Assembly: GCA_026128965.1 (NCBI GenBank)
Contig: JAHCIY010000002.1
Coordinates: 1,512,108-1,576,107, forward strand
Reading direction: 5' to 3'
From: Labilithrix sp.
GTDB taxonomy: Bacteria > Myxococcota_A > Polyangia > Polyangiales > Polyangiaceae
DNA length: 64,000 nt
Shown here piece by piece: positions 2,548 through 23,577 of the stretch. The notes below the pieces were generated by a model. It was given only the letters and a program-made list of their open reading frames with translations. It was not told where the DNA came from and searched no databases. The translations under genes and the position numbers were made by a program. The stretch's first letter is position 1. Every line of letters starts with the position of its first letter.

Positions 2548-5500
2548 ATGTCCCTCAGCTCTCTCATCGTTCAGCGCGGCGTCGCGACGATCCGCGAGAT
2601 CGAAGAGGCGCTCGCGCGGCAAGTGCTGTACGGCGGCGACTTCGTCACGAACCTGCTCGAGGTGAGCCGCGTCGAAGAGGGCGCGCTCATGCCGGTGGTG
2701 GGCGAGTTCTACGGGCTGCCGGCCGCGCCGCCCGGGGAGCTGCCGCAGCCGGCGGGGACCGCGCTCCGCATCGTCGCGGCGGACGTGGTGCAGGAGCGCA
2801 CGTTCGTGCCGCTCGAGGCGGGCGCGTCGCTCGTCGTCGCGGTCGCGGAGCCGCTCTCGAAGGAGGCGGAGCAGGAGCTCACCTTCGCGCTCGCGCTCCC
2901 GATCGAGCAGAAGGTCGCGCCGCTCTTCCGCATCCGGCAGGCGCTCGCGCGCGACTACGGGATCCCGATCGACAAGCGCATCGCGCGCCTGATCCAGAAG
3001 GTCGTCACGAAGGGTCCGATCATCGCGAGCACCTTCCCGCCGCCGCTCGACTCGGCGCCGAAGATCCGCGTCCCGCCGCGACCGCCGAGCATGATCCCGC
3101 CGCCGGTCGCGCCCGCGCCCGCGTCGCCGAAGATGTCGGTGGAGCCGCGCACCGCCGCCGCCCCGCAAGGCACCTACGTGCGCGAGATCGAGCCGCAGCA
3201 GGCGCGTCCGCCGCGCCGGCGTCGCGGCCCGCTCACGCTCGCGGTCGCGGTCGAGGAGCTCGAGGCGTCGGTCGAGCGCGACTTCATCTTCGACGTGCTC
3301 TTCGAGTTCACGCGCCAGTTCTTCGACTACACCGCGCTCTTCGTCGTCCAGGGCGACGTCGCGGAGGGACGCGACGCCTTCGGTGACGGCGCCCCGCGCG
3401 ACAAGGTCGCGCGCCTCGCGGTGCCGCTCGACGACGAGGGGATCCTCGGCGGCGCGCGGAAGGAGAAGAAGCCGGTCCGCCGGAGGCCGAGCGCGGTCGC
3501 CGACGCGGTGCTGATGACGGACCTCGGCCGCGACGGGCAGACCGAGTGCATCGTGTTCCCGATCGTCGTGCGCACGCGCGTCGTGTCGCTCATCCTCGGC
3601 GACGGCGGCACGAGCGGGATCGAGGACATCGGCGTGCGCCAGGTCGAGAGCCTCATCGACACGGCGGCGGGCGCGTTCGAGCGCGTCATCATGCGCCGCA
3701 AGCTGAAGGGCGAGGCGCCCTCCGACGCGAAGGGGAAGAAGGACACCGTTCCGCCCCCGCCGACGATGGTCTCCGAGCCGGCGCAGCAGGAGGACCGCAT
3801 CTCGGCGGAGGAGCTCGCGGCGCCGATCCGCGAGATCATGATGGAGCCGCCGTCGAAGCGGCACGTCGTTCGCCTCGATCCCGAGCCCCCCATCAGCGCG
3901 CGGCCGCCGCTGCCGATCGAGAGCGGGCCGCCGCCGCCGAGCGGACGTCCCGGCGCGACGAACCCGCCGCGCCGCCGCGCGACCGCCCCGAGCTTCGAGT
4001 TCGGCTTCAAGTCGGAGCCGAGCATCGTCAGCGAGAGCAAGCGCCCCGAGGGCCTGCCCGTCATTCACGTGCATCATGCAAGTGTCCCGGCGAGCGATCC
4101 GGTCCCGAACATCCACGAGGCGGTGACCGCGCCGCCGCCGCCGTCACCGCGCGCGCTCGAGACCGCGCTCGAGACCGGGAACGAGGCGCCGTCGACGACG
4201 CGCGATCCCGTCCCCGGCGTCTCGCTCCCGGCGCATCCGTGGGCGGAGGGCGTCCCGCCGGTGAGCGACGCGCCGCACTCGCCGAAGGCGGAGTCGCCGC
4301 CGCCGATGCGCGCGGCCCCGATCACGGACGTGTCTCCGCAGCCGATCCAGATCGGTCCCATCAGCGAGGCGGTCCCCGACTTCAGCGAGGATCAGCTCGC
4401 GACGAAGGTCGGCCACACGACCGATCCCTCGCCGCCGAGCCTCGATCTCCCGCCCTCGAAGCCGCCGCCGCCGGTGGAGCTCGCGGAGCCGAGGACGTTC
4501 GTCGCCAGTGAGCCGCTCTTCGACGAAGAGGAGGCGGCGTCGTTCTCCCAGCTCGTCGTGCAGAACCTCGATCAGGACGCGGACATGCCGGTCTTCGATC
4601 CGGAGGCGACGCCGGTCGCGCCGACCGTGATCGAGGGCGAGACGCCGGCCGCGCCGGCGGTGCTCCGGAGCGAGCCGGTCCTCGCGCTGTCGACGCGCAA
4701 GGGCGACGCGCCGCTGCCGATCCCGTCCTTTCAGCAGAAGCCGATGCCGCCGTCGGAGGGGCAGGTCTCGGTCGGCCCGCACCATCCGCCGTCGTCGCAC
4801 AGCGATCACTCGCGCGTCCTCCCGAGCGTCATCGTCGACGTCTCGAGCGAGTACGTCGGCCTCGTCGAGCGCGCGATCGCGGGCGAGGACGAGGAGGCGG
4901 AGGCGCAGCTCCTCCGCGCCGGCGGCTACGCGATGCCGGCGATCATGGCGAAGTTCCCGGGCCCGATCACGATCGAAGCGGAGCGCCTCGACCTCGACGC
5001 CCTCCCGCGCGTCGCCGACTGCGGTCCCGTCATCCGCCTCATCGCCTCGCAGCGGCGGACCGCGCTCCCGTTCGTCCTCGCCCACGTCGAGGCGCCCGAC
5101 GCCGAGTCGCGCTTCTGGGCGACGTACCTCCTCACCGAGCTCGTCTACCCCGACGCGATCGACGCCGCGATCGCGCGCGCGTTCGACGACGACGCGAAGG
5201 TCCGCCGCGCCGCGCGGGCCGCGGTCCACGCCCTCGCGGAGTCGCATCCGCAAGCGGTGGTGGAGCGCCTCGGCGAGCTCACCCTCGCGCAGACGGTCGA
5301 CCTGCGCATCCGCGCGATCGAGGCGCTCGCGGAGACGCGCGAGCCGAGCGCGGTGCAGGTGCTGTTGCCGCTCCTCGACGAGAACGACAGCGAGGTCGCG
5401 ATCGCGACGCAGAAGGGGCTCGTCCTCCTCACGCGCCAGGACTTCGGGCTCGACCTCGAGAAGTGGACCGCGTGGTGGGACGCGAACAAGGGCCGTCATC

Positions 5501-5712
5501 GCCTCGAGTGGCTGATGGACTCGCTGATGCACGAGCAGCGTCGCATCCGCGGCCTCGCGGGCGAGGAGCTGAAGTGGATCACGAAGGAGTCCTTCGGCTA
5601 CTACGACGACCTCCCCCGCCGCGAGCGCGAGCGCTCGCAGCAGAGGTTCCGCGACTGGTGGGAGCACGTCGGCCGCGTCCGCTTCAGCCGCGCCGCCACC
5701 CGCGGCGCGTAG
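2548..5712 (+). CDS. T2SS-E N-terminal (MshEN-like) domain protein with a long Pro-rich linker and C-terminal HEAT/PBS-lyase repeats
   Basis: The N-terminus LIVQRGVATIREIEEALARQVLYGGDFVTNLLE is GspE_N-like. The central roughly 400 aa are Pro/Ser-rich and low complexity. The C-terminus has repeated DxxVRxxAxxAL HEAT-like units. Confidence 0.7.
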   Translation: MSLSSLIVQRGVATIREIEEALARQVLYGGDFVTNLLEVSRVEEGALMPVVGEFYGLPAAPPGELPQPAGTALRIVAADVVQERTFVPLEAGASLVVAVAEPLSKEAEQELTFALALPIEQKVAPLFRIRQALARDYGIPIDKRIARLIQKVVTKGPIIASTFPPPLDSAPKIRVPPRPPSMIPPPVAPAPASPKMSVEPRTAAAPQGTYVREIEPQQARPPRRRRGPLTLAVAVEELEASVERDFIFDVLFEFTRQFFDYTALFVVQGDVAEGRDAFGDGAPRDKVARLAVPLDDEGILGGARKEKKPVRRRPSAVADAVLMTDLGRDGQTECIVFPIVVRTRVVSLILGDGGTSGIEDIGVRQVESLIDTAAGAFERVIMRRKLKGEAPSDAKGKKDTVPPPPTMVSEPAQQEDRISAEELAAPIREIMMEPPSKRHVVRLDPEPPISARPPLPIESGPPPPSGRPGATNPPRRRATAPSFEFGFKSEPSIVSESKRPEGLPVIHVHHASVPASDPVPNIHEAVTAPPPPSPRALETALETGNEAPSTTRDPVPGVSLPAHPWAEGVPPVSDAPHSPKAESPPPMRAAPITDVSPQPIQIGPISEAVPDFSEDQLATKVGHTTDPSPPSLDLPPSKPPPPVELAEPRTFVASEPLFDEEEAASFSQLVVQNLDQDADMPVFDPEATPVAPTVIEGETPAAPAVLRSEPVLALSTRKGDAPLPIPSFQQKPMPPSEGQVSVGPHHPPSSHSDHSRVLPSVIVDVSSEYVGLVERAIAGEDEEAEAQLLRAGGYAMPAIMAKFPGPITIEAERLDLDALPRVADCGPVIRLIASQRRTALPFVLAHVEAPDAESRFWATYLLTELVYPDAIDAAIARAFDDDAKVRRAARAAVHALAESHPQAVVERLGELTLAQTVDLRIRAIEALAETREPSAVQVLLPLLDENDSEVAIATQKGLVLLTRQDFGLDLEKWTAWWDANKGRHRLEWLMDSLMHEQRRIRGLAGEELKWITKESFGYYDDLPRRERERSQQRFRDWWEHVGRVRFSRAATRGA

Positions 5713-5722
5713 CTCACGCCGC

Positions 5723-7105
5723 TCACGCCGCGTTCGGGAGCCGGCGCGCGGCGGGGAGGCGGATCATGAAGGCGGTGCCGCGGCCGACCTCCGTCTCGAA
5801 GGTGAGCTCGCCGCCGTGTTTGTCGACGATGATGCGGCGGGCGATGGCGAGGCTCTGCCCCGTGCCGCGGCCGACCTCCTTCGTCGTGAAGAACGGGTCG
5901 AAGATCTTGTCGCGGATCGCGACCGGGATCCCGTTCCCGGTGTCGCGGACGCAGACGTGCGCCCAGCCGTCGTCTTGCCACGTCCGCACCTTGATCCGGC
6001 CGCGCGTGCCCGCGCCGTGGTTCGCGTCGGCGACGGCGTGGGCCGCGTTCACGATCAGATCGAGCAAGACCTGGTTCACCTCGCCGCCGTGGCAGTGCAC
6101 CGGGGCGAGCTCGCCGAGCTCGGTCTGCAGCTCCGCGACCTCGGCGTACTCGGGCGCCGCGATCGCGAGCGTGCTGCGGATGCACGCGTTGAGGTCGACG
6201 GCCGATTTTTCGGTCCGGTCCGGCTGCGAGAAGTCCTTCAGCGATTTTACGATGTGGCCGATCCGCTGGAGCCCGTCGAGCGCGTTGTCGAGCGCGATCG
6301 GGACGTTCTCGAGCGCGAAGTCGGTGTCGGCGCTCTCGTCGGCGTCGCGCGCCTTCTCCATCACGTCGGGCGGCGCGAGGGAGACGGCCTCGCGGTAGCT
6401 CTCGATCACCGAGCTCACCGCGGGGAAGGTGCTCTTGATGTAGTGGACGCTGTCGGCGACGAACTGCACCGGGGTGTTGATCTCGTGCGCGATGCCGGCG
6501 GCGAGGCGGCCGAGCGACTCGAGCTTCTGCGCCGATCGCAGCTCGGCCTCGAGGCGATGGCGCGCGGTGACGTCGAGGAAGATGCCGCTCAGGAACGGCC
6601 GCGACTCGGCGTCGAGCAGCGTCTGCACGATGCCGCGGAGCACGAGCTCCTTCCCGCCCGCGGCGGCGAGGCGGAGCTCGACCTCGCGATGGGTCCCCTC
6701 CGCGACGGAGCCGAGCGCGCGGCGGAGGTCGGCGAGGTCCTCCGCGTGGACGTGGCGTTCGAGGAAGTCGGTGTCGGTCCACGCGCGGATGGGGTGCCCG
6801 ACGATCGCGACCGCCTGCGGCCCGACGTAGGTGAAGCGGAGGCTCTCGGGCGCCATCCGGAACGGGATCGCCTGCGTCGTCTCGAGGAGCTGGCGGTACT
6901 CCTCGCGGCTCACGGTGAGCTCGCGCGTGCGCTCCTCGACGCGCGCCTCGAGCTCGCGCTGCTGTCGCGAGCGCACGATCAGCGTGCCGGTCGCGGCGAT
7001 CAGCACCGTCGCGACCGGCGCGAGCTTCGCGGGCGCCGCCCACATCGTCACCACGGTGGCGATGACGGCCACCACACAAGGTTTCGCGGTCCTTCGACCC
7101 ATCTT
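5723..7105 (-). CDS. sensor histidine kinase with TM/PAS region
   Basis: H-box HEINTPVQFVADSVHY and HATPase motifs (DTGNGIP, GTGQSLAIARRI). The start is placed at MGRRTAKP, which has a GAGGG RBS. The upstream part of the 507-aa ORF is probably not coding. Confidence 0.8.
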   Translation of the reverse strand, partial: KMGRRTAKPCVVAVIATVVTMWAAPAKLAPVATVLIAATGTLIVRSRQQRELEARVEERTRELTVSREEYRQLLETTQAIPFRMAPESLRFTYVGPQAVAIVGHPIRAWTDTDFLERHVHAEDLADLRRALGSVAEGTHREVELRLAAAGGKELVLRGIVQTLLDAESRPFLSGIFLDVTARHRLEAELRSAQKLESLGRLAAGIAHEINTPVQFVADSVHYIKSTFPAVSSVIESYREAVSLAPPDVMEKARDADESADTDFALENVPIALDNALDGLQRIGHIVKSLKDFSQPDRTEKSAVDLNACIRSTLAIAAPEYAEVAELQTELGELAPVHCHGGEVNQVLLDLIVNAAHAVADANHGAGTRGRIKVRTWQDDGWAHVCVRDTGNGIPVAIRDKIFDPFFTTKEVGRGTGQSLAIARRIIVDKHGGELTFETEVGRGTAFMIRLPAARRLPNAA

Positions 7106-7217: not shown

Positions 7218-8168
7218 GTGCACAGCGAGTTGAAGCGGCAGCTCACGCGCCTGGGGATCGCCGGCGACGGCCGAGAGCCCCCGAGCGCGGAGCAGTGGAG
7301 CGCGTTCGTCGAGGCGATGAACGCGCGGTTCGTCGAGGTCGACGAGGAGCGGCGAGCGGTCGGGCACCGTCAGAAGCTCGAGGAGGTCGGGCGGCTCGCG
7401 GCGGGCATCGCGCACGAGATCAACACGCCGGTGCAGTTCGTGAGCGACAACGTCCACTTCCTGCAGTCGTCCTTCGAGACCGTCACCGACCTCGTCACGC
7501 GCCTCGTCGCGCTCGCTTCGAGCGAGGACGCCGCGCGCGAGGCCGTCGCCGACGCCGACTGGGGGTACCTCGGCGACGAGATCCCGTGCGCGATCAAGCA
7601 GACGCTCGAGGGCCTCACGCGCGTCGCGAGCATCGTCCGCTCGATGAAGAACTTCGCGCACAACGATCGCGGCGAGGCGACGGAGACGGACCTCAACGCC
7701 GTGCTCCGCACGACCCTCACCGTCGCCGGGCACGAGCTGAAGAGCATCGCGCACACGGTCGAGGACTTCGGCGACATCCCGCGCGTCGTCTGCTGTCGCG
7801 GCGAGCTCTCGCAGGTCTTCCTCAACCTCATCGTGAACGCGGCCCACGCCACCGCCGACGTCGTGAAGCGGACCGGGGTGCTCGGGCGGATCGCGGTCTC
7901 GACCGCGCTCGACGGCGATCACGTCGTCGTCGCCGTCTCCGACACCGGCGGCGGCATCCCCGATCACGCTCAGGGCCACATCTTCGAGCCGTTCTTCACG
8001 ACGAAGGATCCGGGCCGCGGGACCGGGCAGGGCCTCGCGCTCGCCTTCGGCGTCGTGAAGAAGCACGGCGGCACGCTCCGCTTCGAGACGGAGCAGGGGG
8101 CCGGCACCACCTTCTTCGTCCGTCTTCCGATCGCGGGTGCTCCTTCTTCTTCCGTCCGAGCAGCATGA
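7218..8168 (+). CDS. cytoplasmic histidine kinase (HisKA+HATPase)
   Basis: GTG start after GGGGGAA. H-box HEINTPVQFVSDNVHF. Motifs DTGGGIP and GTGQGLALAF. Divergent from the preceding kinase with a roughly 110 bp intergenic region. Confidence 0.8.
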   Translation: MHSELKRQLTRLGIAGDGREPPSAEQWSAFVEAMNARFVEVDEERRAVGHRQKLEEVGRLAAGIAHEINTPVQFVSDNVHFLQSSFETVTDLVTRLVALASSEDAAREAVADADWGYLGDEIPCAIKQTLEGLTRVASIVRSMKNFAHNDRGEATETDLNAVLRTTLTVAGHELKSIAHTVEDFGDIPRVVCCRGELSQVFLNLIVNAAHATADVVKRTGVLGRIAVSTALDGDHVVVAVSDTGGGIPDHAQGHIFEPFFTTKDPGRGTGQGLALAFGVVKKHGGTLRFETEQGAGTTFFVRLPIAGAPSSSVRAA

Positions 8169-9304
8169 ACCTCGAAGCTTCCTCCTCTCCCGTCGTCCCC
8201 GGCCTCCCGAAGCAGCGCGCCCTCCTCGTCGACGACGAGGCGCGCGTCGTCGACGCGATGCAGCGCGCGCTCCGCCCGCATCGCAAGACGATCGAGGTCC
8301 ACACCGCGACCTCCGGCGCCGCCGCGCTCGCGCTCCTCGAGGCGACGCACTTCGACGTCCTCGTGACCGACATGCGGATGCCGGGCATGGACGGCGCGGC
8401 GCTCCTCGCGCAGGCGCGCGTCGTCCGCCCGCAGACGATGCGGATCGTCCTCTCGGGCCAGACCGACATGGACGCCGCCCTCCGCGCGGTGCCGTACGCG
8501 CATCAGTTCCTGACGAAGCCGACCGAGCCGTCGGTCCTCGGCGAGCTCCTCGCCCGCCGCGCGTCGGCGCAGTCGGCCGTCGGCGACGCCGCCCGCGCCG
8601 CGCTCGGCGGCATCGAATCGCTCCCGAGCCCGCCCGCCTTCTGCCGCGCTCTCGCGCGCGTCCTCCTTCACGAGGAGGCCTCCGTCGAGGAGATCGCGCG
8701 CCTCGTCGAGCGCGATCCGGCGATGGCGGCGAAGGTCCTCCAGATCGTCTCCACCTCCTTCTTCGGCGTCCGCAAAGGGATCTGCTGCGTCGCGGAGGCG
8801 GTCTCGTACCTCGGCCCCGAGCTGATGGAGCGCGTCTGCATCTACGGCGGGATCATGAGCCCCGCGACCTCGAGCTCGGTGGGCTTCGACGTCGAGCGGC
8901 ACCACGAGCGCGCGGTCGAGGTCGCGACGCTCGCGCGCGCGCTCGCCGGTCCCGGCGCGGCCGGCGACGGCGCCTTCGTCGCGGGCGTCCTCCACGACGT
9001 GGGGCGCCTCGCGACCGCGATCGCGATGCCGGCCGCGTACGCCGCCGCTCCCGACGCGTGTTACGTGTCGAACGCGGTCTACCTCCTGAACCTCTGGGGC
9101 CTCCCCGCCGGCGTCGTGACCGCGATCGCGGAGCAGGCGACGGCGGACGGCACCGGCCGCGGCCCGCTCCGCCCCGCCGACGCGGTCTACGTCGCGCGCC
9201 GCCTCCTCGACACGGAGGGCGCCTACGGCTCCGCGCCGGAGGAGCGCGCGTACCTCGAGCGGCTCGGCATCCTGGACCGGGTCGTGCAGCGGAGGGCGGC
9301 GTGA
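8165..9304 (+). CDS. response regulator, REC + HDOD domain
   Basis: ATGA overlap with the kinase stop. REC: LLVDDEARVVDAMQRAL...DVLVTDMRMPGMDG. The C-terminus (EIARLVERDPAMAAKVLQIVSTSFFG) is HDOD-like. Confidence 0.85.
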   Translation: MNLEASSSPVVPGLPKQRALLVDDEARVVDAMQRALRPHRKTIEVHTATSGAAALALLEATHFDVLVTDMRMPGMDGAALLAQARVVRPQTMRIVLSGQTDMDAALRAVPYAHQFLTKPTEPSVLGELLARRASAQSAVGDAARAALGGIESLPSPPAFCRALARVLLHEEASVEEIARLVERDPAMAAKVLQIVSTSFFGVRKGICCVAEAVSYLGPELMERVCIYGGIMSPATSSSVGFDVERHHERAVEVATLARALAGPGAAGDGAFVAGVLHDVGRLATAIAMPAAYAAAPDACYVSNAVYLLNLWGLPAGVVTAIAEQATADGTGRGPLRPADAVYVARRLLDTEGAYGSAPEERAYLERLGILDRVVQRRAA

Positions 9305-16649: not shown

Positions 16650-16723
<74 letters not shown>

Positions 16724-16772
16724 CTGATAGCCGTACCACGACCCAGCCCTCGGCCCTCCGCCGGGGGCTTCG

Positions 16773-18039
16773 TCATTTCGGCGAGCGCGACGAGCGGGAG
16801 GAAGGTTGCCTCCGCGACGTAGACGCCGTCGTCTCCGGGGGTGAGCAGGATTCGTCCGCCTTCGAACATCCGGCGTAGAGCCTCGCGGGCGCGGAGGGGG
16901 TCCGCGGCGAGCACGGCGTCGAGGTCCTTCGCGCGTTCGAGGACGCGGTCGGGGTCGGGAGGTCCACGGGAGCGTTCATCCGGTCCTTGATGTTCTGAAT
17001 CGCCGTGCGTTCCGTGAGAGCTTGTGCCTCAAGGTCCCGAAGGGCGTCGCGGACCGAACTGGAATGGTCGCCGTCGGCGATGAAGGTGACGAGCCCGCGT
17101 ATGCGTTGCTCCGTCCGGGCGAGGCGGTCGAGCCTCTCCTTCATCTCGTGCTGTGCGAGCCGCGCGGCCTCACCGAGGTGCTCTGCAATGCGCTTGCGAA
17201 GGTGGGCCACCGCAGCCGGTGTGAAGACGGCTTCACGAAGCGCGCCATAGATGCGGGCGCGGACGAGGTCCTCTCGTACCGACAGGGCGTTCTTGCAGAC
17301 GCCCCGCTTCTTCGAGTCCCCGCAGCGATAGTACGAAGTTCGCGGTCCGACCGCCTTGCCGTCGACCTCCGCTCGGGAGCCGCCGGAGATGACCATCGGC
17401 GAGTGGCACGCTGCGCAGATGAGGAGTCCGGAGAGAGGGTAGGCCGTGCGGGCGCCGGGCGCAGACCGCGTCATCCGCTTTACCGTGTATCGACTCCGTA
17501 CTTCGGCGAGACGGGTCCGGACTCTTGTCGGGGACGCTGCAGTATCCAAGCGGGAGCCCGCCGGTCGAGTAGCCGGCGTTGAACTGACTCTCAAGCCCGC
17601 GCAGAGTCTTGTCGCGAAGAGCGTCGAGATAGAGGTCGGCGACCAGGCTCGACATCGTGAACGTCAGCTTGGCCGTCTTCAGTCCCGTGTTGACGCCATC
17701 GGCGACGCCTATGAGGGCGACGTCGAGGTACTGGAGGCGCTTGAAGATGAACGCCGCGTCGGCGAAGTCTCGCGACACGCGCGACATGTCCTCGACGAGA
17801 ATGACGTCGACCCGCTTCTCTTCGACGGCCTTCATCAGCCGCTCGAACCCCGGGCGTTGGAGGCTAGCGGCGCTGACGGCCTCGTCCTTGAAGATGAGCG
17901 CGGGAATCACCTCGGCTCCCGACGCTCGCGCCGCTTCCACGCACCGTCGTACTTGGTCATCGGTTGACCGTTCGTTCTGCAGGGCCGACGAGTGCCGTGC
18001 ATAGACGGCGATTTGCTTGCCGGCAAGGGTACTAGTCAT
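16773..18039 (-). pseudogene. large serine recombinase, disrupted by a frameshift and an internal deletion
   Basis: The resolvase domain (KQIAVYARHSS...VDVILVEDMSRVSR) plus GGLPLGY lie in the frame of ORF 17233..18162. The zinc ribbon (YPLSGLLICAACHSPM) and coiled coil lie in the frame of ORF 16773..17594. Only about 25 codons separate GY from the zinc ribbon where about 90 aa of recombinase domain are expected. Confidence 0.65.
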
Positions 18040-18685
18040 CGCGTACACCGGGTACGTCAGCATGACGAGCATCTCGGACGTCGGTCGTGGTCGAGGTCCG
18101 GCACCAGCCGAGCGCTTCACCGCCGAGACGCACATCGCGCCGACGCAGGTGGGCAAGGGCATCGCGGGTCCTCTCTCCGATGGCCTCGCGCTCCCACTGC
18201 GCCACCGACCCGATGATGTGGAGCACGAGACGTCCCGAGGCGGTACGGGTGTCGATGGAGTCGCCGAGGGAGAGTAGGGAGTGGCGCCGGGAGAAGTACC
18301 GCTCGACGAGGTCGCCGAGGTCGCGGACGCTGCGGGTTAGGCGGTCGAGTTTCACGACGAGAAGTCCGTCGGCTTCGTCGGCGTCGAGGCGCCCGAGGGC
18401 GCGGAGCAGTCCGGGTCGGCCCACCACCGTCTTCGCGGAGATGCCCGCGTCCTCCTCAATGGTGACGAGGTCGAGGTCCATCGCCTCTGCGTAGGCGGTG
18501 AGCTTGGCCCTCTGTGCTTCGAGGGAGGTGCCGGCGTCCGCCTGACCGTCCGTGCTGACCCGGATGTACCCGACCACGCGTGTTCCCAAGGCGTCACCTC
18601 CTTGCGAAGGGGTACCCCGGGGTGGTCCTCGTTTTCGAGATGGGCATCTCGTAAACGGCAAGTACCCCATTCCGATGGCTTCCAC
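18032..18685 (-). CDS. small serine recombinase, catalytic domain only (C-terminal HTH missing)
   Basis: VVGYIRVSTDGQ...LLVVKLDRLTRS...GSVAQWEREAIGERT is a resolvase/invertase catalytic domain. It has no DNA-binding HTH. It ends 7 bp inside the next recombinase gene. The true start is likely the GTG at 18577. Confidence 0.55.
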   Translation of the reverse strand: MEAIGMGYLPFTRCPSRKRGPPRGTPSQGGDALGTRVVGYIRVSTDGQADAGTSLEAQRAKLTAYAEAMDLDLVTIEEDAGISAKTVVGRPGLLRALGRLDADEADGLLVVKLDRLTRSVRDLGDLVERYFSRRHSLLSLGDSIDTRTASGRLVLHIIGSVAQWEREAIGERTRDALAHLRRRDVRLGGEALGWCRTSTTTDVRDARHADVPGVRDD

Positions 18686-18738
18686 TTGGCTGCGCCAGGC
18701 GGCTTGACATCCATCCAGGTCGCCATCATCATTCTTGG

Positions 18739-19212
18739 ATGACAGTTCGTCTTTCGGTCTTGCGACGCGGAACTCAGGTCGAGATTGAGGGGCCCGAGGC
18801 CTTCGTAACGAGCACTTTCGAGAGCTTGAGGGACCTGTTCGACAAGCCGAATGTTAAGGATGATAGCGCGGATGAACCGCCCACCAACGATGGCGAAAAG
18901 GCTGGCGAGGAAGGTTCGAGGGTGTCGCTCAAGACGTTCCTTGAGCAGAAGAAGCCTCAAAACTCCTACGAGGCCATCGCGTGCGTTCTCTATCACCACC
19001 AAAAGTTCCGCGAGCAGAGCGAACTGAACTCTGACGAGATACGGAAGGCGCTCCTCCAAGGCCGCGTGAAGCCGCCGGGGAACATGACGCAGACGCTTAC
19101 AGACTGCCGTCGCCGCTACGCGTACATCGAGCCTGGGACGAAGAAGGGACTCTGGAAGTTGAGCCACGACGGAGAGGTGACGGTCGACCTGGACCTGCCG
19201 CGCGAAAAATGA
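18739..19212 (+). CDS. hypothetical protein with a winged-helix-like domain shared with the two downstream proteins (cassette gene A)
   Basis: Low-GC gene with an ATGA overlap to the next gene. The region SLKTFLEQKKPQNSYEAIACVLYHH...KKGLWKLSHDGE aligns with 20391..21020 and with the N-terminus of 19209..20336. Confidence 0.6.
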   Translation: MTVRLSVLRRGTQVEIEGPEAFVTSTFESLRDLFDKPNVKDDSADEPPTNDGEKAGEEGSRVSLKTFLEQKKPQNSYEAIACVLYHHQKFREQSELNSDEIRKALLQGRVKPPGNMTQTLTDCRRRYAYIEPGTKKGLWKLSHDGEVTVDLDLPREK

Positions 19213-20336
19213 GTGAGACGTTTTCGGAGCTGTATGCGCAGCTACCTCGGGGGAAAAGGTCTCCAAGGAATGCCGTTCTTCTCGGTCTCCTCGTTCTTCG
19301 CGCGGATAAAGCCGCCTCGGCCGTCGACAGTAATGCCATTTCGGCTGAGCTGAAACTGCGCCTCGGCAAGGCGGCTCCTGGCAATGTGCCTGACGTTTTG
19401 AGGAAGGCCATTCCTCGAGTGGAATGCACTCGGGTCGCTAAAAGCGGACTGCGTTGGCATCTCACGAGGACAGGTGTCGACGAGCTTCGATCATACGGAC
19501 TTCAAGTGTCGCAGGAGAAGGCGGCACCGCCTGCTCGGTCGTTCGATGTCGCCATTGTCTGCGCTCTGCACAGTCCTGAACTTCACGAGGTTCTGAACGC
19601 GTTCGGAGGCGAGTCGAAATGGCAGAGCCAGCCCGACTTCGGTCAAACCCACATATACAAATCAATTGACGTGCCGTTGTCGGGCGCACCGCCTCTGAGT
19701 GTTGTGGCCGGAGCCCCCACGCACATGGGGCTTACTGCAACTGCCATCATCTCCACGCAAATGCTGCTCATGTTTAGACCTCGGCTCATCGTGATGGTCG
19801 GAATTGCAGCGGGCACGAAGGCCTCGGGACGAAACTACGGTGACATCTTGGTCGCTAACCCCAGCGTGGACTACGCGTCCGGCAAGATTGCGGTAGTTGA
19901 CGGCGTTGAGACATTTCAGCCCGATCCGTTTCCCTTGCCGGTCGACTCCAGACTGCACACGCTGGTCCAGGAAGATCGACGTACGAGAGAGGGACTGGAC
20001 GAGATCGCTGGTACTTGGGGCGGCGCCCGGCCCCGAACTTCGCTCAATATCCACATTGGTGCACTCGGGGCAGCGGACCAAGTGGTTGATAGCGAAAAGC
20101 GAATCCTCGATATCAAGAAGAACTGGCGAAAGTTGATCGGCGTCGAGATGGAGACGTATGCCCTCTACCGTGCTGCGCATGAGGCCCCGCGGCCGAAGCC
20201 TCTCTACGTGAGCTTCAAGTCAGTCTGTGACTTTGCTGCCGCGAAGGACGACGCGTGGCAGGAGTACGCCGCCTTTACAGCGGCTCAGTACTGTCGCCGT
20301 TTCCTGCTCAAAAACTGGTCTGTGCTCAGTGCCTGA
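19209..20336 (+). CDS. fusion of the shared winged-helix-like domain (N-terminus) with a PNP/UDP-phosphorylase family nucleosidase (MTA/SAH-nucleosidase fold) domain (cassette gene B)
   Basis: The C-terminal 270 aa read FDVAIVCALHSPE...IVMVGIAAGT...GVEMETYALYRAA, which is the PNP_UDP_1 fold. The N-terminus PRNAVLLGLLVL...PGNVPDVLRKAI...KSGLRWHLTRTG resembles the domain in genes A and C. Confidence 0.7.
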   Translation: MSETFSELYAQLPRGKRSPRNAVLLGLLVLRADKAASAVDSNAISAELKLRLGKAAPGNVPDVLRKAIPRVECTRVAKSGLRWHLTRTGVDELRSYGLQVSQEKAAPPARSFDVAIVCALHSPELHEVLNAFGGESKWQSQPDFGQTHIYKSIDVPLSGAPPLSVVAGAPTHMGLTATAIISTQMLLMFRPRLIVMVGIAAGTKASGRNYGDILVANPSVDYASGKIAVVDGVETFQPDPFPLPVDSRLHTLVQEDRRTREGLDEIAGTWGGARPRTSLNIHIGALGAADQVVDSEKRILDIKKNWRKLIGVEMETYALYRAAHEAPRPKPLYVSFKSVCDFAAAKDDAWQEYAAFTAAQYCRRFLLKNWSVLSA

Positions 20337-20390: not shown

Positions 20391-21020
20391 TTGGGGACAG
20401 GAAGCTTTATGAGCGAAGATGCGAAGTCTGATTTTATGGCGGCGGAAGAGATTAAGAAGATTCTGCACGGTCGGCAAAAGGCAGAACAGGAACGCATCGT
20501 CCGATGGGTGAGTGAGAGCCTTGAGCTTGCCGGTGCAGCGGTCAAGCCGAAGGTCGAACACGCGCACCCGGGCGTTCACGTTCCCGCGACGCTTGCGGAC
20601 ACGCCCTCGAGGCCCAGAGACGGAGAGGCAGGGCCCAAGGACTTTCGAAGCTTCTTCCAAGAGAAGCAGCCGAAGAACGATGTTCAGTTCGTGGCCGTGG
20701 CCGCGTACTACCACCGCTTCATGGCACCCGCCGCTGACCGCAAGGAGGCGATTTCGTCTGCAGACCTCCAGGACGCAGCGCGTCTCGCCCCCTGGACCGT
20801 TTTCGCGAAACCGAGCAAGACACTCGGCAACGCTGTGCGGCAAGGCTACATGAACGGCTCTGGAAGAGGCACGTACCGATTGAATGCAGTGGGCGAGAAC
20901 CTGGTGTCCATGACACTTCCGGGGACGGCCACGACTGGTTCAACTAAGGGCGGCCGCGGGAAGCGGCGACCATCGAAGAAGGCGGGAGCAAAGAAGTCAC
21001 GGAAGTCCGGCAAGGGATGA
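20391..21020 (+). CDS. hypothetical protein with the shared winged-helix-like domain and a Lys/Arg/Gly-rich C-terminal tail (cassette gene C)
   Basis: DFRSFFQEKQPKNDVQFVAVAAYYHRF...GRGTYRLNAVGE is a paralogue of gene A. The tail is GSTKGGRGKRRPSKKAGAKKSRKSGKG. ATGA overlap with the next gene. Confidence 0.6.
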   Translation: MGTGSFMSEDAKSDFMAAEEIKKILHGRQKAEQERIVRWVSESLELAGAAVKPKVEHAHPGVHVPATLADTPSRPRDGEAGPKDFRSFFQEKQPKNDVQFVAVAAYYHRFMAPAADRKEAISSADLQDAARLAPWTVFAKPSKTLGNAVRQGYMNGSGRGTYRLNAVGENLVSMTLPGTATTGSTKGGRGKRRPSKKAGAKKSRKSGKG

Positions 21021-21820
21021 GTGACACACTCGGACATATCGAGGCGGCCATCGCCGAGGTGGCACGGGCACGAAGCGCAGTGCAGCGTTCAAAGTCCCCC
21101 CAAGTCCGTGGCGCCGAAGAACGTGACGGTCTGAAGGCCGTGGCCTATGCGTGGTTCAAGACCCACAAGCCGCGCGTCGGAGACCTCGACGTGAGTGCTG
21201 TCGACAATGCATACCAGAAGGTTCTCGACGCCACCGCGAAGGCCGCCGCTCGGTCTACCTACGTGAGCACGCTGAAGGCGGCAAAGGACGCGCTCGTCAC
21301 TCTCCGTCGCCTTGTGACTGCAGTCCCTGTCCGGAATAGCAAGACGACAGCGGATGCGCCGCCGCCATTTGCGTCGCTTACCGGAGATGTCGCCATGCAG
21401 GAGATTCTCACCCGACGATGGACTGAGGTGCAGACCTGCATCAACGCGGGAGCCAATCTGGCGGCGACCGTGATGATGGGCGGCCTAATGGAGACGCTGC
21501 TTCTTGCGCGCATCAACGTCGTCGCGAACAAAGCCCCCATCTACACTGCGAAGAATGCACCCAAGGACAAGGCCGGCAAGACACTGTCGCTCAATGACTG
21601 GAAGTTGGTCGCCATGGTAGAAGTTGCGCACGAAGTTGGATGGATAACGAAGTCCGCCAAGGATGTCGGGAACGTCCTTAGAGACTTTCGGAACTACATT
21701 CACCCGCACAAGGAACACACCGATGGCATCTTGATAGGCGCGGAAGACGCGCGTGTGTTCTGGGAGGTTTGCGGGGCTATCAGTCGGCAACTCCTGGCCT
21801 CGACTGGCAAGATTCCCTGA
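21017..21820 (+). CDS. HEPN-like protein with a putative R-x6-H nuclease motif (cassette gene D)
   Basis: Alpha-helical protein. The C-terminal motif DFRNYIHPHKE fits the Rx4-6H pattern of HEPN RNases. Translationally coupled to gene C. Confidence 0.55.
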   Translation: MSDTLGHIEAAIAEVARARSAVQRSKSPQVRGAEERDGLKAVAYAWFKTHKPRVGDLDVSAVDNAYQKVLDATAKAAARSTYVSTLKAAKDALVTLRRLVTAVPVRNSKTTADAPPPFASLTGDVAMQEILTRRWTEVQTCINAGANLAATVMMGGLMETLLLARINVVANKAPIYTAKNAPKDKAGKTLSLNDWKLVAMVEVAHEVGWITKSAKDVGNVLRDFRNYIHPHKEHTDGILIGAEDARVFWEVCGAISRQLLASTGKIP

Positions 21821-21854: not shown

Positions 21855-22499
21855 CTAAGACACGTCGTCTACACGACACAGCCGGACGCCGACACGCTGC
21901 CTGAGGTCGTGGTACGGCCCGCGTATCGCCCCCGCGCAACTACTCGCAGAATACCGCGGATCTTGGTCCGCACCCCGCCGCCCTCCCTGGTCCGCCACGG
22001 AGGGCGGAGTCGTTAGTAGGACCAGCGGGAGGATCTCGGACTCGGCGACGTAGAACCCGCCCGGTTGAGGGTTGAGTCGAATCTTCCCGTCATGGAAGAG
22101 GCGCCTGAGCTCTTCCCGTCCCTTGGAGACGTCCGCCATCAGGCGACGCTCGAGATCGAAGACCAGCGCGGTCATCCCCTCCGGCGTCGGGAGGGAGATC
22201 GGCACCGTGGCGTCGCGCTCGAGGGCCTTTACCTGGCGACGGAGGACCTTCGCTTCGGTTTCGAGCGTCTTCAACCGTTCGCGGATCGTCGGCGAACCTT
22301 GGCCGTCCGCGATGAAGTCGACCATCGACGAACCGCAGACCCCGCAGACAAGGAGCGAGGAGAAGAGGTACGAGCTCGCGCGTCCCGGAAGCGCGCGCCC
22401 CTTCGGCGAAGTCCGACGACATGATCGCGACGCTCGTCGTCTTCGGGCCACCGAGCTCGGGCGGCAACGTGAGGAAGGCATCGCCGTAGCGGTCTCCAT
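21855..22499 (-). pseudogene. C-terminal remnant of a second large serine recombinase (zinc ribbon + coiled coil)
   Basis: SSYLFSSLLVCGVCGSSMV...LKTLETEAKVLRRQVKALE parallels the C-terminus of 16773..18039. There is no catalytic or recombinase domain upstream. Confidence 0.55.
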
Positions 22500-22657
22500 T
22501 GTTGGCTACTGCCGTCCCTCAAAAGAACCCCTCGTGGCCATCCACTTCGTTCCGCCAAGGGCCTCGTCGGCGAATCACGTCGGCCGTGAAGATGACCGTC
22601 TCCGCTAGCGCGCTGTCGCTCTTGAGCGAGTTCGACACGTGCCAGCCGACGATCGAC

Positions 22658-22843
22658 CTAGACGACGCCCGCCCAGGTCGCATCGTAGGTGAGGTCGGCG
22701 ACCCAGAGCTGGTTCGGTCGCTCGGCGTGGAACTCTCGCGGCGCGAGGCCCGGCGGCCGCGGCGACGCGTCGTCGGCCTCGGTGGTGATCTTGAACGCGC
22801 GTCCGCGGACGGCGGCTGCGAAGCGTTCGCCACGAAGTGACAA
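22658..22843 (-). mobile_element. IS3-family transposase (rve integrase core) fragment
   Basis: FHAERPNQLWVADLTYDATWAGVV matches the start of the IS3 OrfB catalytic core. Only about 60 codons remain. Confidence 0.5.
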
Positions 22844-22884
22844 GTGGCGTCCCCTTCAGGTATGGTCGGCTCGGAAGCGCGGTC

Positions 22885-23577
22885 ATGGTCGTCTTGCGTC
22901 AGCGGAGCACGCGGATTCGTTTCGTCATCCCTCACGCGCTGTTGGCGTTGCTGGCCGTGGTTGCGGCGTGCAGCTCATCGAGCACGGCCGGTGGAACTGT
23001 GCCGTGCGAGGTCGAATGCGACGGGGACGAGGTCTGCTCCGCAGGGAAGTGCGTCCCAGCGACGGACGCCTCGACATCCGAGACGGGCACGAAGCAGGAC
23101 GGCGAGTCGTGCGTCATCACCGGCTCGAACTGTGACCCGTCTTGCTTGGAGTCCTGCGGTGCGTCGTCGTCCTGCGTCGACCGGTGCTGTCCCGATACGA
23201 AGGGCGCGGGCATCCTCTGCGGCGGTCAGTGCGTCGCGCCGAAATGCAAAAAGGGCGAGACCTCCTCGACGTGGGAGGGGTTCTCGGAGCGCGAGTGGAC
23301 CTGCTACGAGATAGCCGGCGGCTGCGACTGCACGAACACGTCGACGCGCGCCGAACTGGTGGCGGACGGCATGAAGATCTTGCCGAGCTGCGCTGGCGCC
23401 TCCTGCGCAATCGATCTCGACTCGCCTGCTCTGACCTGCACGTGCCGCGCGACGGGCACATCACTCCCGCGCGACTGCCCCGGGACCGTCTGCACGGCAG
23501 GCGTCTTGGCTTGCACGGGACCGTTCAACTTCAAGTGCGATGACCCGTGCGTCGGGGTCGCCGTGCTCCATCCGTAA
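22885..23577 (+). CDS. cysteine-rich secreted lipoprotein
   Basis: Signal peptide with lipobox (LLALLAVVAAC-SSS). More than 30 Cys in CxxC/CxC arrangements. Native high GC, so it lies outside the island. Confidence 0.6.
   Translation: MVVLRQRSTRIRFVIPHALLALLAVVAACSSSSTAGGTVPCEVECDGDEVCSAGKCVPATDASTSETGTKQDGESCVITGSNCDPSCLESCGASSSCVDRCCPDTKGAGILCGGQCVAPKCKKGETSSTWEGFSEREWTCYEIAGGCDCTNTSTRAELVADGMKILPSCAGASCAIDLDSPALTCTCRATGTSLPRDCPGTVCTAGVLACTGPFNFKCDDPCVGVAVLHP

Follow-up and report, generated by a model that had tools for sequence, protein, structure and literature searches.

A winged-helix PNP protein with small partner genes in Labilithrix: a known effector class joined to a candidate new control module

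ATP-nucleosidase effectors built on a PNP domain are a recently recognised arm of immunity in bacteria, fungi and animals. Their known switches are cyclic nucleotides, as in the cyclic-oligonucleotide-based anti-phage signalling system (CBASS), phosphotransfer, as in Detocs, and sensors of the NLR or Argonaute type. This article describes a gene in a metagenome-assembled genome of Labilithrix sp. (GenBank assembly GCA_026128965.1, contig JAHCIY010000002.1) whose product, herein called the target, carries such a PNP domain behind a winged helix. It is situated in a stretch of 64,000 nucleotides (positions 1,512,108 to 1,576,107 of the contig), termed the window, to which the coordinates of the locus refer. 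Judging from sequence comparison, the product of the gene is probably the effector in an apparently undescribed conflict module (anti-phage/abortive-infection) that has two components and is horizontally mobile. The core of this module is composed of a partner of ~160-210 amino acids (aa) and a MarR/TubR-like winged helix; the C-terminal enzyme is interchangeable and here is a PNP of the Cap17/DtcC clade. A known effector class is thus combined with a new control module, and the family would add to the switches named above a different and simpler one, consisting of a DNA-binding-type winged helix and one small partner. The gene is one of four + strand genes in a 3.2-kb low-GC island; they occupy 18.74-21.82 kb with 52-65% GC, as opposed to 69-75% GC in the genome. 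The island contains the following features:

18739..19212, + strand: partner "type B" (W_157, 157 aa), with 4 nt (ATGA) shared between its stop and the PNP start
19209..19499, + strand: winged-helix N-domain of the target, residues 1-97 (helices 19-29, 41-55 and 60-66; β-hairpin wing 71-76 and 80-85)
19545..20336, + strand: PNP/MTAN-fold effector domain of the target, residues 113-375 (Pfam, PADLOC PDC-M60C, Foldseek match to methylthioadenosine/S-adenosylhomocysteine (MTA/SAH) nucleosidases (MTAN), alignments with MtnN and DtcC)
20409..21020, + strand: partner "type B2" (W_209; 203 aa from ATG 20409); the open reading frame (ORF) opens at TTG 20391, the probable start is 20409
21017..21820, + strand: W_267 (267 aa), a candidate effector from a large uncharacterised family, whose start overlaps the B2 stop by 4 nt

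For Cap17 and DtcC, ATP/dATP nucleosidase activity and defence were demonstrated (bioRxiv 10.1101/2023.01.24.525353). DtcC of Detocs resembles the target in that a linker joins its regulatory N-domain to a PNP effector; the PNP is of the same immune subfamily, with the catalytic Asp and the GIAAG and EME motifs conserved. However, the target has no receiver (REC) domain. Its N-domain is a winged helix without a Response_reg match in Pfam, which agrees with the non-REC N-terminal domain proposed in an earlier note on this DNA. Furthermore, the island contains neither the TPR-histidine kinase DtcA nor the stand-alone receiver DtcB, which acts as a buffer, its proteins match no PDC-M60A or PDC-M60B model of PADLOC, and the gene associated with the target encodes a small protein of unknown fold. 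As REC, DtcA and DtcB are all absent, activation of the target cannot work by phosphotransfer. The models PDC-M60A, PDC-M60B and PDC-M60C correspond to DtcA, DtcB and DtcC: a triad on a Bacillus toyonensis plasmid matches all three, and DtcC of Vibrio alginolyticus, which has been characterised by experiment, matches PDC-M60C over its full length. Membership of the locus in PDC-M60 as a system was rejected, since the match is limited to the PNP part and the A and B components of what is Detocs are absent. Unannotated Detocs-like triads were seen on plasmids in loci L079 (675-5777, B. toyonensis pBtP18) and L080 (Escherichia coli pKTa005_3).

Cap17 of CBASS (TPALS-PNP), like the target, has an N-terminal sensor domain joined to a PNP from the defensive clade, together with an MGIAAG-like motif (MGIAAG in Cap17). 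Its cleavage of the N-glycosidic bond of ATP/dATP is, by analogy, the chemistry expected for the target too. It differs in that none of the four island proteins matches the cyclic-oligonucleotide-binding domain TPALS/PF18178, a CD-NTase or a Cap gene in Pfam or PADLOC. Hence the target belongs to neither CBASS nor Detocs, because the defining parts of both were tested for and are absent. The housekeeping nucleosidase MtnN/Pfs has the same fold and the same catalytic Glu/Glu/Asp positions. In contrast, the position of MtnN Ser76 is taken by Ile199 within GIAAG in the target, as is the case in Cap17 and in DtcC (SGICAG). MtnN is a single-domain protein of ~230 aa in a conserved chromosomal context, whereas the target comprises 375 aa with a winged helix and an obligatory partner in a mobile low-GC island. 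Rousset et al. (bioRxiv 10.1101/2023.01.24.525353) describe the Z-alpha-PNP proteins of arthropods (insects) and nematodes, in which Z-alpha is joined to a Cap17-like PNP. They follow an analogous logic, a winged-helix-type nucleic-acid sensor joined to an ATP nucleosidase, and the present family would be their bacterial counterpart. A Z-alpha likeness of the target N-domain itself was tested and is not supported. No paper describing the module of partner and winged helix was found in the literature searched, and PADLOC knows its effector halves only (PDC-M60C and PDC-S35).

The target gene (19209-20336, + strand) is an intact ORF of 375 aa with an ATG start. An AlphaFold2 model calculated with 24 homologues as input has a predicted local distance difference test score (pLDDT) of 83.8. 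In it, a disordered linker (~96-112) connects a compact N-domain (residues ~5-95, pLDDT >90) with an α/β domain (113-375). For the latter, PNP_UDP_1 of Pfam matches at residues 114-355 (E 2.7e-15). The best Protein Data Bank matches of the model in Foldseek are MTA/SAH nucleosidases and futalosine hydrolase (E 2e-11), the former with template modelling (TM) scores of ~0.65-0.7 normalised on the target. The PNP/MTAN fold that the earlier note had read from three motifs is confirmed by both methods; the motifs FDVAIVCAL, MVGIAAGT and the third one quoted there are located at residues 112-120, 196-203 and 311-323. The N-domain is predicted by the model to be a winged helix of DNA-binding type that is MarR/TubR-like; it resembles MarR/PadR/TubR DNA binders. 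The window ORF is recovered by the hidden Markov model (HMM) of the family N-domain at E 3.9e-28, and residues N59 and W83 of the winged helix are invariant across the family. The public entry KIT84_18635 (hypothetical protein, 276 aa) is identical to the C-terminal 276 aa of the target. It begins at V100 (GTG), and therefore the N-domain is missing from the public annotation: positions 19209-19505, with the conserved winged helix and the 4-nt upstream overlap, are left out. The misannotated start codon is corrected here. Homologues of the target carry the automatic labels "MTA/SAH nucleosidase" or "nucleoside phosphorylase", the former being a misleading label that propagates in databases.

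The catalytic residues were compared with E. coli MtnN (sequence from NC_000913.3) and V. alginolyticus DtcC (sequence from the supplement of Rousset et al.). E124 of the target (codon 19578-19580) corresponds to MtnN E12, E313-M314-E315 (E313/E315 codons within 20145-20153) to E172-M173-E174, and D341 (20229-20231) to D197. These acidic residues (E124, E313/E315 and D341) are invariant in the 24 homologues aligned. D341 also aligns with DtcC D353, the mutation of which abolished Detocs defence (Rousset et al., bioRxiv 10.1101/2023.01.24.525353). With all of these residues retained, the loss that would mark a pseudo-enzyme is not seen.

By score comparison, the PNP domain appears to belong with the immune PNPs of DtcC/Cap17 type and not with housekeeping MtnN. 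In BLASTP, the target aligns with V. alginolyticus DtcC at 84 bits (E 3e-22, 29% identity over 193 aa) and with E. coli MtnN at 31 bits (22% identity in the residue alignment). PDC-M60C scores 211.5 bits against the target over profile positions 132-400 of 407, leaving positions 1-131 unmatched; on the controls, it scores 216.5 bits for V. alginolyticus DtcC at full length and 42.5 bits for E. coli MtnN. The PNP domain is furthermore 40.5% identical to that of the REC-PNP protein in the Detocs-like triad on the B. toyonensis plasmid. Both NCBIfam equivalogs of MtnN are missed by the target, PRK05584 scoring 43.1 bits where 169 are required and TIGR01704 scoring 25.2 where 73.8 are required. 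Together with a synteny that is confined to the partner gene, this bears out the statement of the earlier note that the gene is not a housekeeping mtnN/pfs, and no housekeeping orthology was found. The "PN" effector model for CBASS in PADLOC does not discriminate, since E. coli MtnN (54.5 bits) outscores the target (36.6 bits) on it.

The winged helix is not confined to PNP proteins. A profile of the winged helix alone retrieved just 90 proteins among 1.84 billion representative proteins, and the domain is considered specific to this system for that reason. Apart from PNP proteins and fragments, it is found on proteins of ~241-256 aa that end in Hypoth_Ymh (PF09509, E 1e-20 to 1e-24) and match Aga_HEPN and PD-Lambda-3_B of PADLOC. 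It is also found on proteins of ~254-263 aa that end in a CAP12/Pycsar TIR domain (PF10137, E 1e-37 to 1e-42) and match PDC-S35 and PycTIR, and on proteins of ~245 aa with a C-terminal DLRNxCGHP motif and no Pfam match. In these proteins, the winged helix of the target is followed by effector domains of PDC-S35, CAP12/PycTIR, PD-Lambda-3_B or Argonaute-associated HEPN type instead of the PNP domain. PDC-S35 is listed as a single-gene candidate without a partner model. The winged-helix TIR and winged-helix Ymh proteins appear to be sister variants of one module, and the swaps show a modular organisation of sensor/adaptor and effector as is typical of immune systems. The conflict-system role that the earlier note had called plausible gains support from these fusions of the same N-domain to TIR and Ymh-HEPN effector domains, activity and defence being attributed by homology.

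More than 700 homologues of the target were retrieved at E <= 1e-3, most of them 372-383 aa long with 44-60% identity at 98-100% query coverage; winged helix plus PNP is therefore the normal architecture. A scan of GTDB species representatives yielded 64 loci in Acidobacteriota, Verrucomicrobiota, Planctomycetota, Nitrospirota, Bacteroidota and Alphaproteobacteria, and members also exist in Myxococcota. In soil and freshwater phyla, where experimental sampling is poor, the family is common. In 42 of 42 full-length loci (38 of them distinct), the PNP gene is directly adjoined on the same strand by a partner from one family, "type A" (~205-215 aa), for which Pfam, PADLOC (E <= 10) and PHROGs give no match. 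It lies downstream of the PNP gene in 37 of the 38 distinct loci and upstream in L001. In the subclade nearest to the window (55-60% identity; L070, L071, L073 and L001), type A is located upstream. Besides PNP and partner, no gene family is common to more than four of the 38 neighbourhoods. As the partner alone is conserved beside the PNP gene, the two form a self-contained two-gene module that moves between genomes.

The partner also occurs next to a different enzyme. In locus L081 (2379-4420), type A partner genes are placed on both sides of a winged-helix TIR gene (E 3e-52 and 2e-35), one of them sharing 58% identity with the partner that accompanies the PNP gene in L071. The partner hence tracks the winged helix and not the enzyme, and the two together constitute the constant core. 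One partner of each subtype found beside PNP genes is present in L081, an arrangement mirroring the two-partner layout of the window. In a Verrucomicrobia metagenome-assembled genome (MAG), a gene for a 272-aa protein (L012, 14473-15291) lies ~5 kb downstream of a PNP and partner pair; over its C-terminal half, this protein shares 51% identity with the TIR domain of the winged-helix TIR protein.

The module of the window is a variant: type A is absent, and the PNP gene is placed between B (upstream) and B2 (downstream). Start and stop codons overlap by 4 nt between B and PNP (19209-19212) and between B2 and W_267 (21017-21020), B2 being translationally coupled to W_267, and B2 begins 55 nt (TTG) or 72 nt (ATG) past the PNP stop. 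Neither B nor B2 has a match in Pfam, PADLOC (E <= 10), NCBIfam or PHROGs. Type B is rare, with 4 homologues in a search of 5.8 billion proteins; the window protein matches the B profile at E 8.6e-80, the profile alignment having included the window sequence itself. In L072, a gene for a 115-aa protein occupies the same position, overlapping the start of PNP, and W_157 is 46% identical to this protein. In L074 and L075, where PNP is absent, the W_267 homologue has a gene directly upstream whose product is 49-51% identical to W_209, and a B2-type gene overlaps the stop of the winged-helix PNP gene in L078.

The partner types are interconnected. W_157 and W_209 are divergent paralogues (BLASTP 2.8e-7; hhalign probability 94%), and the N-terminal ~50 aa of B2 match the N terminus of type A (hhalign probability 75%). 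A and B2 thus have an N-terminal motif in common, and B and B2 a C-domain. A bridge between the types is provided by the L078 partner, which resembles type A over its N-terminal ~50 aa (E 5e-8) and type B over its C-domain (E 5e-9). The C-terminal ~70 aa of type B align with the winged helix of the target itself (hhalign probability 72%, E 3.5e-5). That the partner C-domains are remote relatives of the effector winged helix is a lead from weak, register-consistent evidence.

What follows on function, substrate, trigger, direction of regulation and defence phenotype is drawn from homology only. By analogy with Cap17 and DtcC, the target is most likely a triggered ATP/dATP nucleosidase that acts by abortive infection. 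In the uninfected cell, the PNP domain would be held inactive by the winged helix and the co-translated partner. An infection cue, which may be phage nucleic acid, a phage protein or loss of the partner, would act on the pair of partner and winged helix and let the PNP domains assemble into an active oligomer. Because MTAN-fold enzymes work as obligate dimers, controlled oligomerisation via the winged helix would be the most economical switch. The enzyme would then hydrolyse the N-glycosidic bond of ATP/dATP to yield adenine and (deoxy)ribose-5'-triphosphate. With energy and dATP exhausted, growth arrest or abortive infection would ensue and phage replication would abort. The partner may herein serve as sensor, as antitoxin-like inhibitor or as both.

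A broader proposition is made tentatively, as one that may well not hold: partner and winged helix could be a new general infection-sensing and regulatory cassette that drives at least three unrelated suicide or depletion effectors (the PNP ATP nucleosidase, the TIR NADase of CAP12 type and the HEPN of Ymh type), with related B-type adaptors serving the winged-helix PNP protein and W_267 side by side in the window. If so, the island would be a dual-effector system from a combinatorial adaptor-effector kit. The same core recurs with TIR and HEPN-type effectors, so that solving one trigger would explain several uncharacterised families, including PDC-S35 and possibly the W_267 family with its more than 1,600 members; W_267 has a different N-domain and is linked only via the related B2-type partners and a domain swap.

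Several observations weigh against a mobile conflict module of this kind. The window copy lies among decayed recombinase genes, and nowhere in the window is there a canonical type A partner. With characterised or Detocs-type ATP nucleosidases, the PNP domain shares only ~29-40% identity. Partner and winged helix are linked through a single non-PNP locus (L081), and the partner C-domain is only weakly homologous to the winged helix (hhalign probability 72% for B, 11% for A; HMM E 0.5-0.9). Many homologue neighbourhoods resemble ordinary chromosome. An origin of the family in phages was rejected as well, as tblastn found no homologue in 50,697 phage records. The first two of these points bear on whether the module is a non-functional relic, carried by an integrative element that has decayed and no longer under expression or selection in this Labilithrix. 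Frameshifts or truncations affect the serine recombinase genes on its flanks, an IS3-like transposase fragment is present at 22658-22843, and homologues elsewhere are frameshifted too (L042, L043, L051 and L054). The window copy could be a decaying remnant, yet none of the four island ORFs is broken, their starts and stops overlap in a coupled manner, no family-invariant residue, catalytic or other, has been lost, and the upstream B-type partner has an intact orthologue at the same position in L072. A relic is accordingly scarcely probable at all. It is also very improbable that the target is a metabolic or regulatory enzyme in which a DNA-binding domain is attached to a nucleosidase of nucleoside or MTA/SAH type, such as a salvage enzyme that doubles as a ligand-responsive transcription factor, with no part in conflict. 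The MTAN fold with its catalytic residues, the automatic labels, the likeness of the N-domain to MarR/PadR/TubR and several neighbourhoods without defence genes would fit such an enzyme. However, both MtnN cut-offs are missed widely, the target is much nearer to the Detocs effector than to MtnN, and the distribution is patchy across seven phyla with only the partner syntenic. The gene moreover sits in a low-GC island among recombinase remnants, and its winged helix recurs on TIR and HEPN-type domains, which have no salvage role.

An addiction module resembling type II toxin–antitoxin (TA) systems is unlikely, albeit compatible with a role in defence. The partner would herein be a labile antitoxin, possibly an autorepressor, that neutralises the PNP toxin, and the pair would stabilise the mobile element instead of sensing phage. 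The layout favours this: 4-nt overlaps couple the translation of a small gene to that of a larger enzyme gene (also in L072 and L078), the gene order is reversible between clades, as it is in many TA families, and the two genes form a self-contained unit in variable contexts and among integrative-element remnants. In addition, the related Cap17 PNP domain is toxic when expressed alone (bioRxiv 10.1101/2023.01.24.525353). Set against this, searches of Pfam and PADLOC (and, for B and B2, of NCBIfam) assign the partners to no known antitoxin family, and the effector possesses a DNA-binding-type winged helix of its own, which classical toxins lack. The swappable set of PNP, CAP12-type TIR and Ymh-HEPN is the repertoire of sensor-effector immune systems, and no winged-helix-bearing homologue was found on plasmids, where the matches cover the PNP domain only. 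A triggered effector of a mobile conflict module is thus preferred.

The island is the cargo of a decayed integrative element. The following features lie at its borders:

16650..16724, + strand: tRNA-Met (CAT), found by ARAGORN and by the Rfam tRNA model (65.3 bits)
16773..18685, - strand: large serine recombinase remnants (ORFs 16773-17594, 17233-18162 and 18032-18685), two or three tandem genes, frameshifted or truncated
18704..18732, + strand: sigma-70-like promoter match TTGACA-17-CATCAT, 7 nt upstream of the gene at 18739
21855..22499, - strand: C-terminal fragment of a large serine recombinase (weak Zn_ribbon_recom match in Pfam) with a paralogous repeat, D2, shared with 17752-17777
22658-22843, right of the island: IS3-like transposase fragment (NQLWVADLTY)

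The tRNA-Met, which stands leftmost in the mobile-element remnant around the island, is likely a landmark of integration, and the fragment at 21855..22499 marks the right side of the cargo; the remnants on the two flanks extend over 16650-18685 and 21855-22935. In the left remnants, Pfam identifies two Resolvase N-domains (E 1e-34 and 1e-25) and one Zn_ribbon_recom domain (E 4e-10). Direct repeats of att type were sought around the island and rejected, only short repeats at chance level being present; a perfect 14-nt inverted repeat (16730-16743 / 21905-21918) is likewise at about chance level. The promoter match is the only one in 18.3-22.2 kb and, with one found against 0.6 expected in shuffled sequences, is no better than chance. 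Pairing of a winged helix with HEPN is known from type IX retrons. A retron or other non-coding RNA in the island was ruled out, as Rfam at E <= 1 finds no RNA besides the tRNA and there is no reverse transcriptase ORF.

The surroundings of the homologues are suggestive of a conflict role. Their neighbours include NIR/DUF4062, AbiJ-like PDC-S32 and integrase/excisionase genes; the NIR NADase is described in bioRxiv 10.64898/2026.09.04.749371. A set of 147 neighbour ORFs, taken from 19 loci (20 when one ORF of L022 is counted), contains matches to MADS, type II restriction-modification, Csa3, PARIS-like systems and PDC candidates. In Chryseosolibacter histidini (L004), the winged-helix PNP gene and its partner are located between genes for a DUF4062 protein (NIR NADase) and an AbiJ_NTD4 protein (4818-5861 and 7957-8802), the latter of which is PDC-S32 of PADLOC (E 1e-108); the region looks like a small defence island. 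In L070 (429-1031), a 200-aa protein with a weak MtlR match in Pfam and a canonical HEPN-type motif, IRNTFAHN, is encoded just upstream of the partner-PNP pair.

W_267, the second candidate effector, has 1687 homologues of ~275 aa, none of which contains a Pfam domain. Its C-terminal domain shows the invariant motif LRDFRNYIHPHKE, and the invariant R225-N-Y-I-H-P-H231 fits Rx5H within the HEPN motif Rx4-6H, without a profile match to HEPN. The earlier note had placed the target in a low-GC island next to a HEPN gene. The low GC content stands, and the HEPN label of 21017-21820 is unproven: Pfam, PADLOC, NCBIfam, PHROGs and a Protein Data Bank profile search yielded no HEPN support, nor did a scan of 21 W_267 family members or hhalign against the MtlR-like HEPN-motif protein of L070. 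W_209 and W_267 form a separate conserved two-gene module, which is present in the window (20409-21820), in L074 (3415-4810) and in L075 (3226-4828). The domain swap that connects W_267 to the target consists of a fusion of its N-terminal ~115-aa domain to a PNP domain in P0016 and P0017, the N-domain of which matches the W_267 family at E 2e-7. Their PNP domain is 57% identical to that of the target, and P0017 has a 194-aa gene just upstream.

Some members of the family deviate from the common architecture. In L042, L043, L051 and L054, the gene is split between winged helix and PNP domain (around 7900-9100), and partner genes are split or truncated at some loci, L034 (9098-9735) and L021 (9260-9661) being among the affected regions. 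These splits are frameshifts, pseudogenes or errors of MAG assembly. Two Nostoc proteins of 529 aa (L045, 7215-8801; L046, 684-2270) contain a PNP domain of the target subfamily (43-44% identity) behind an N-terminal region of ~260 aa that is neither a winged helix nor an obvious REC domain.

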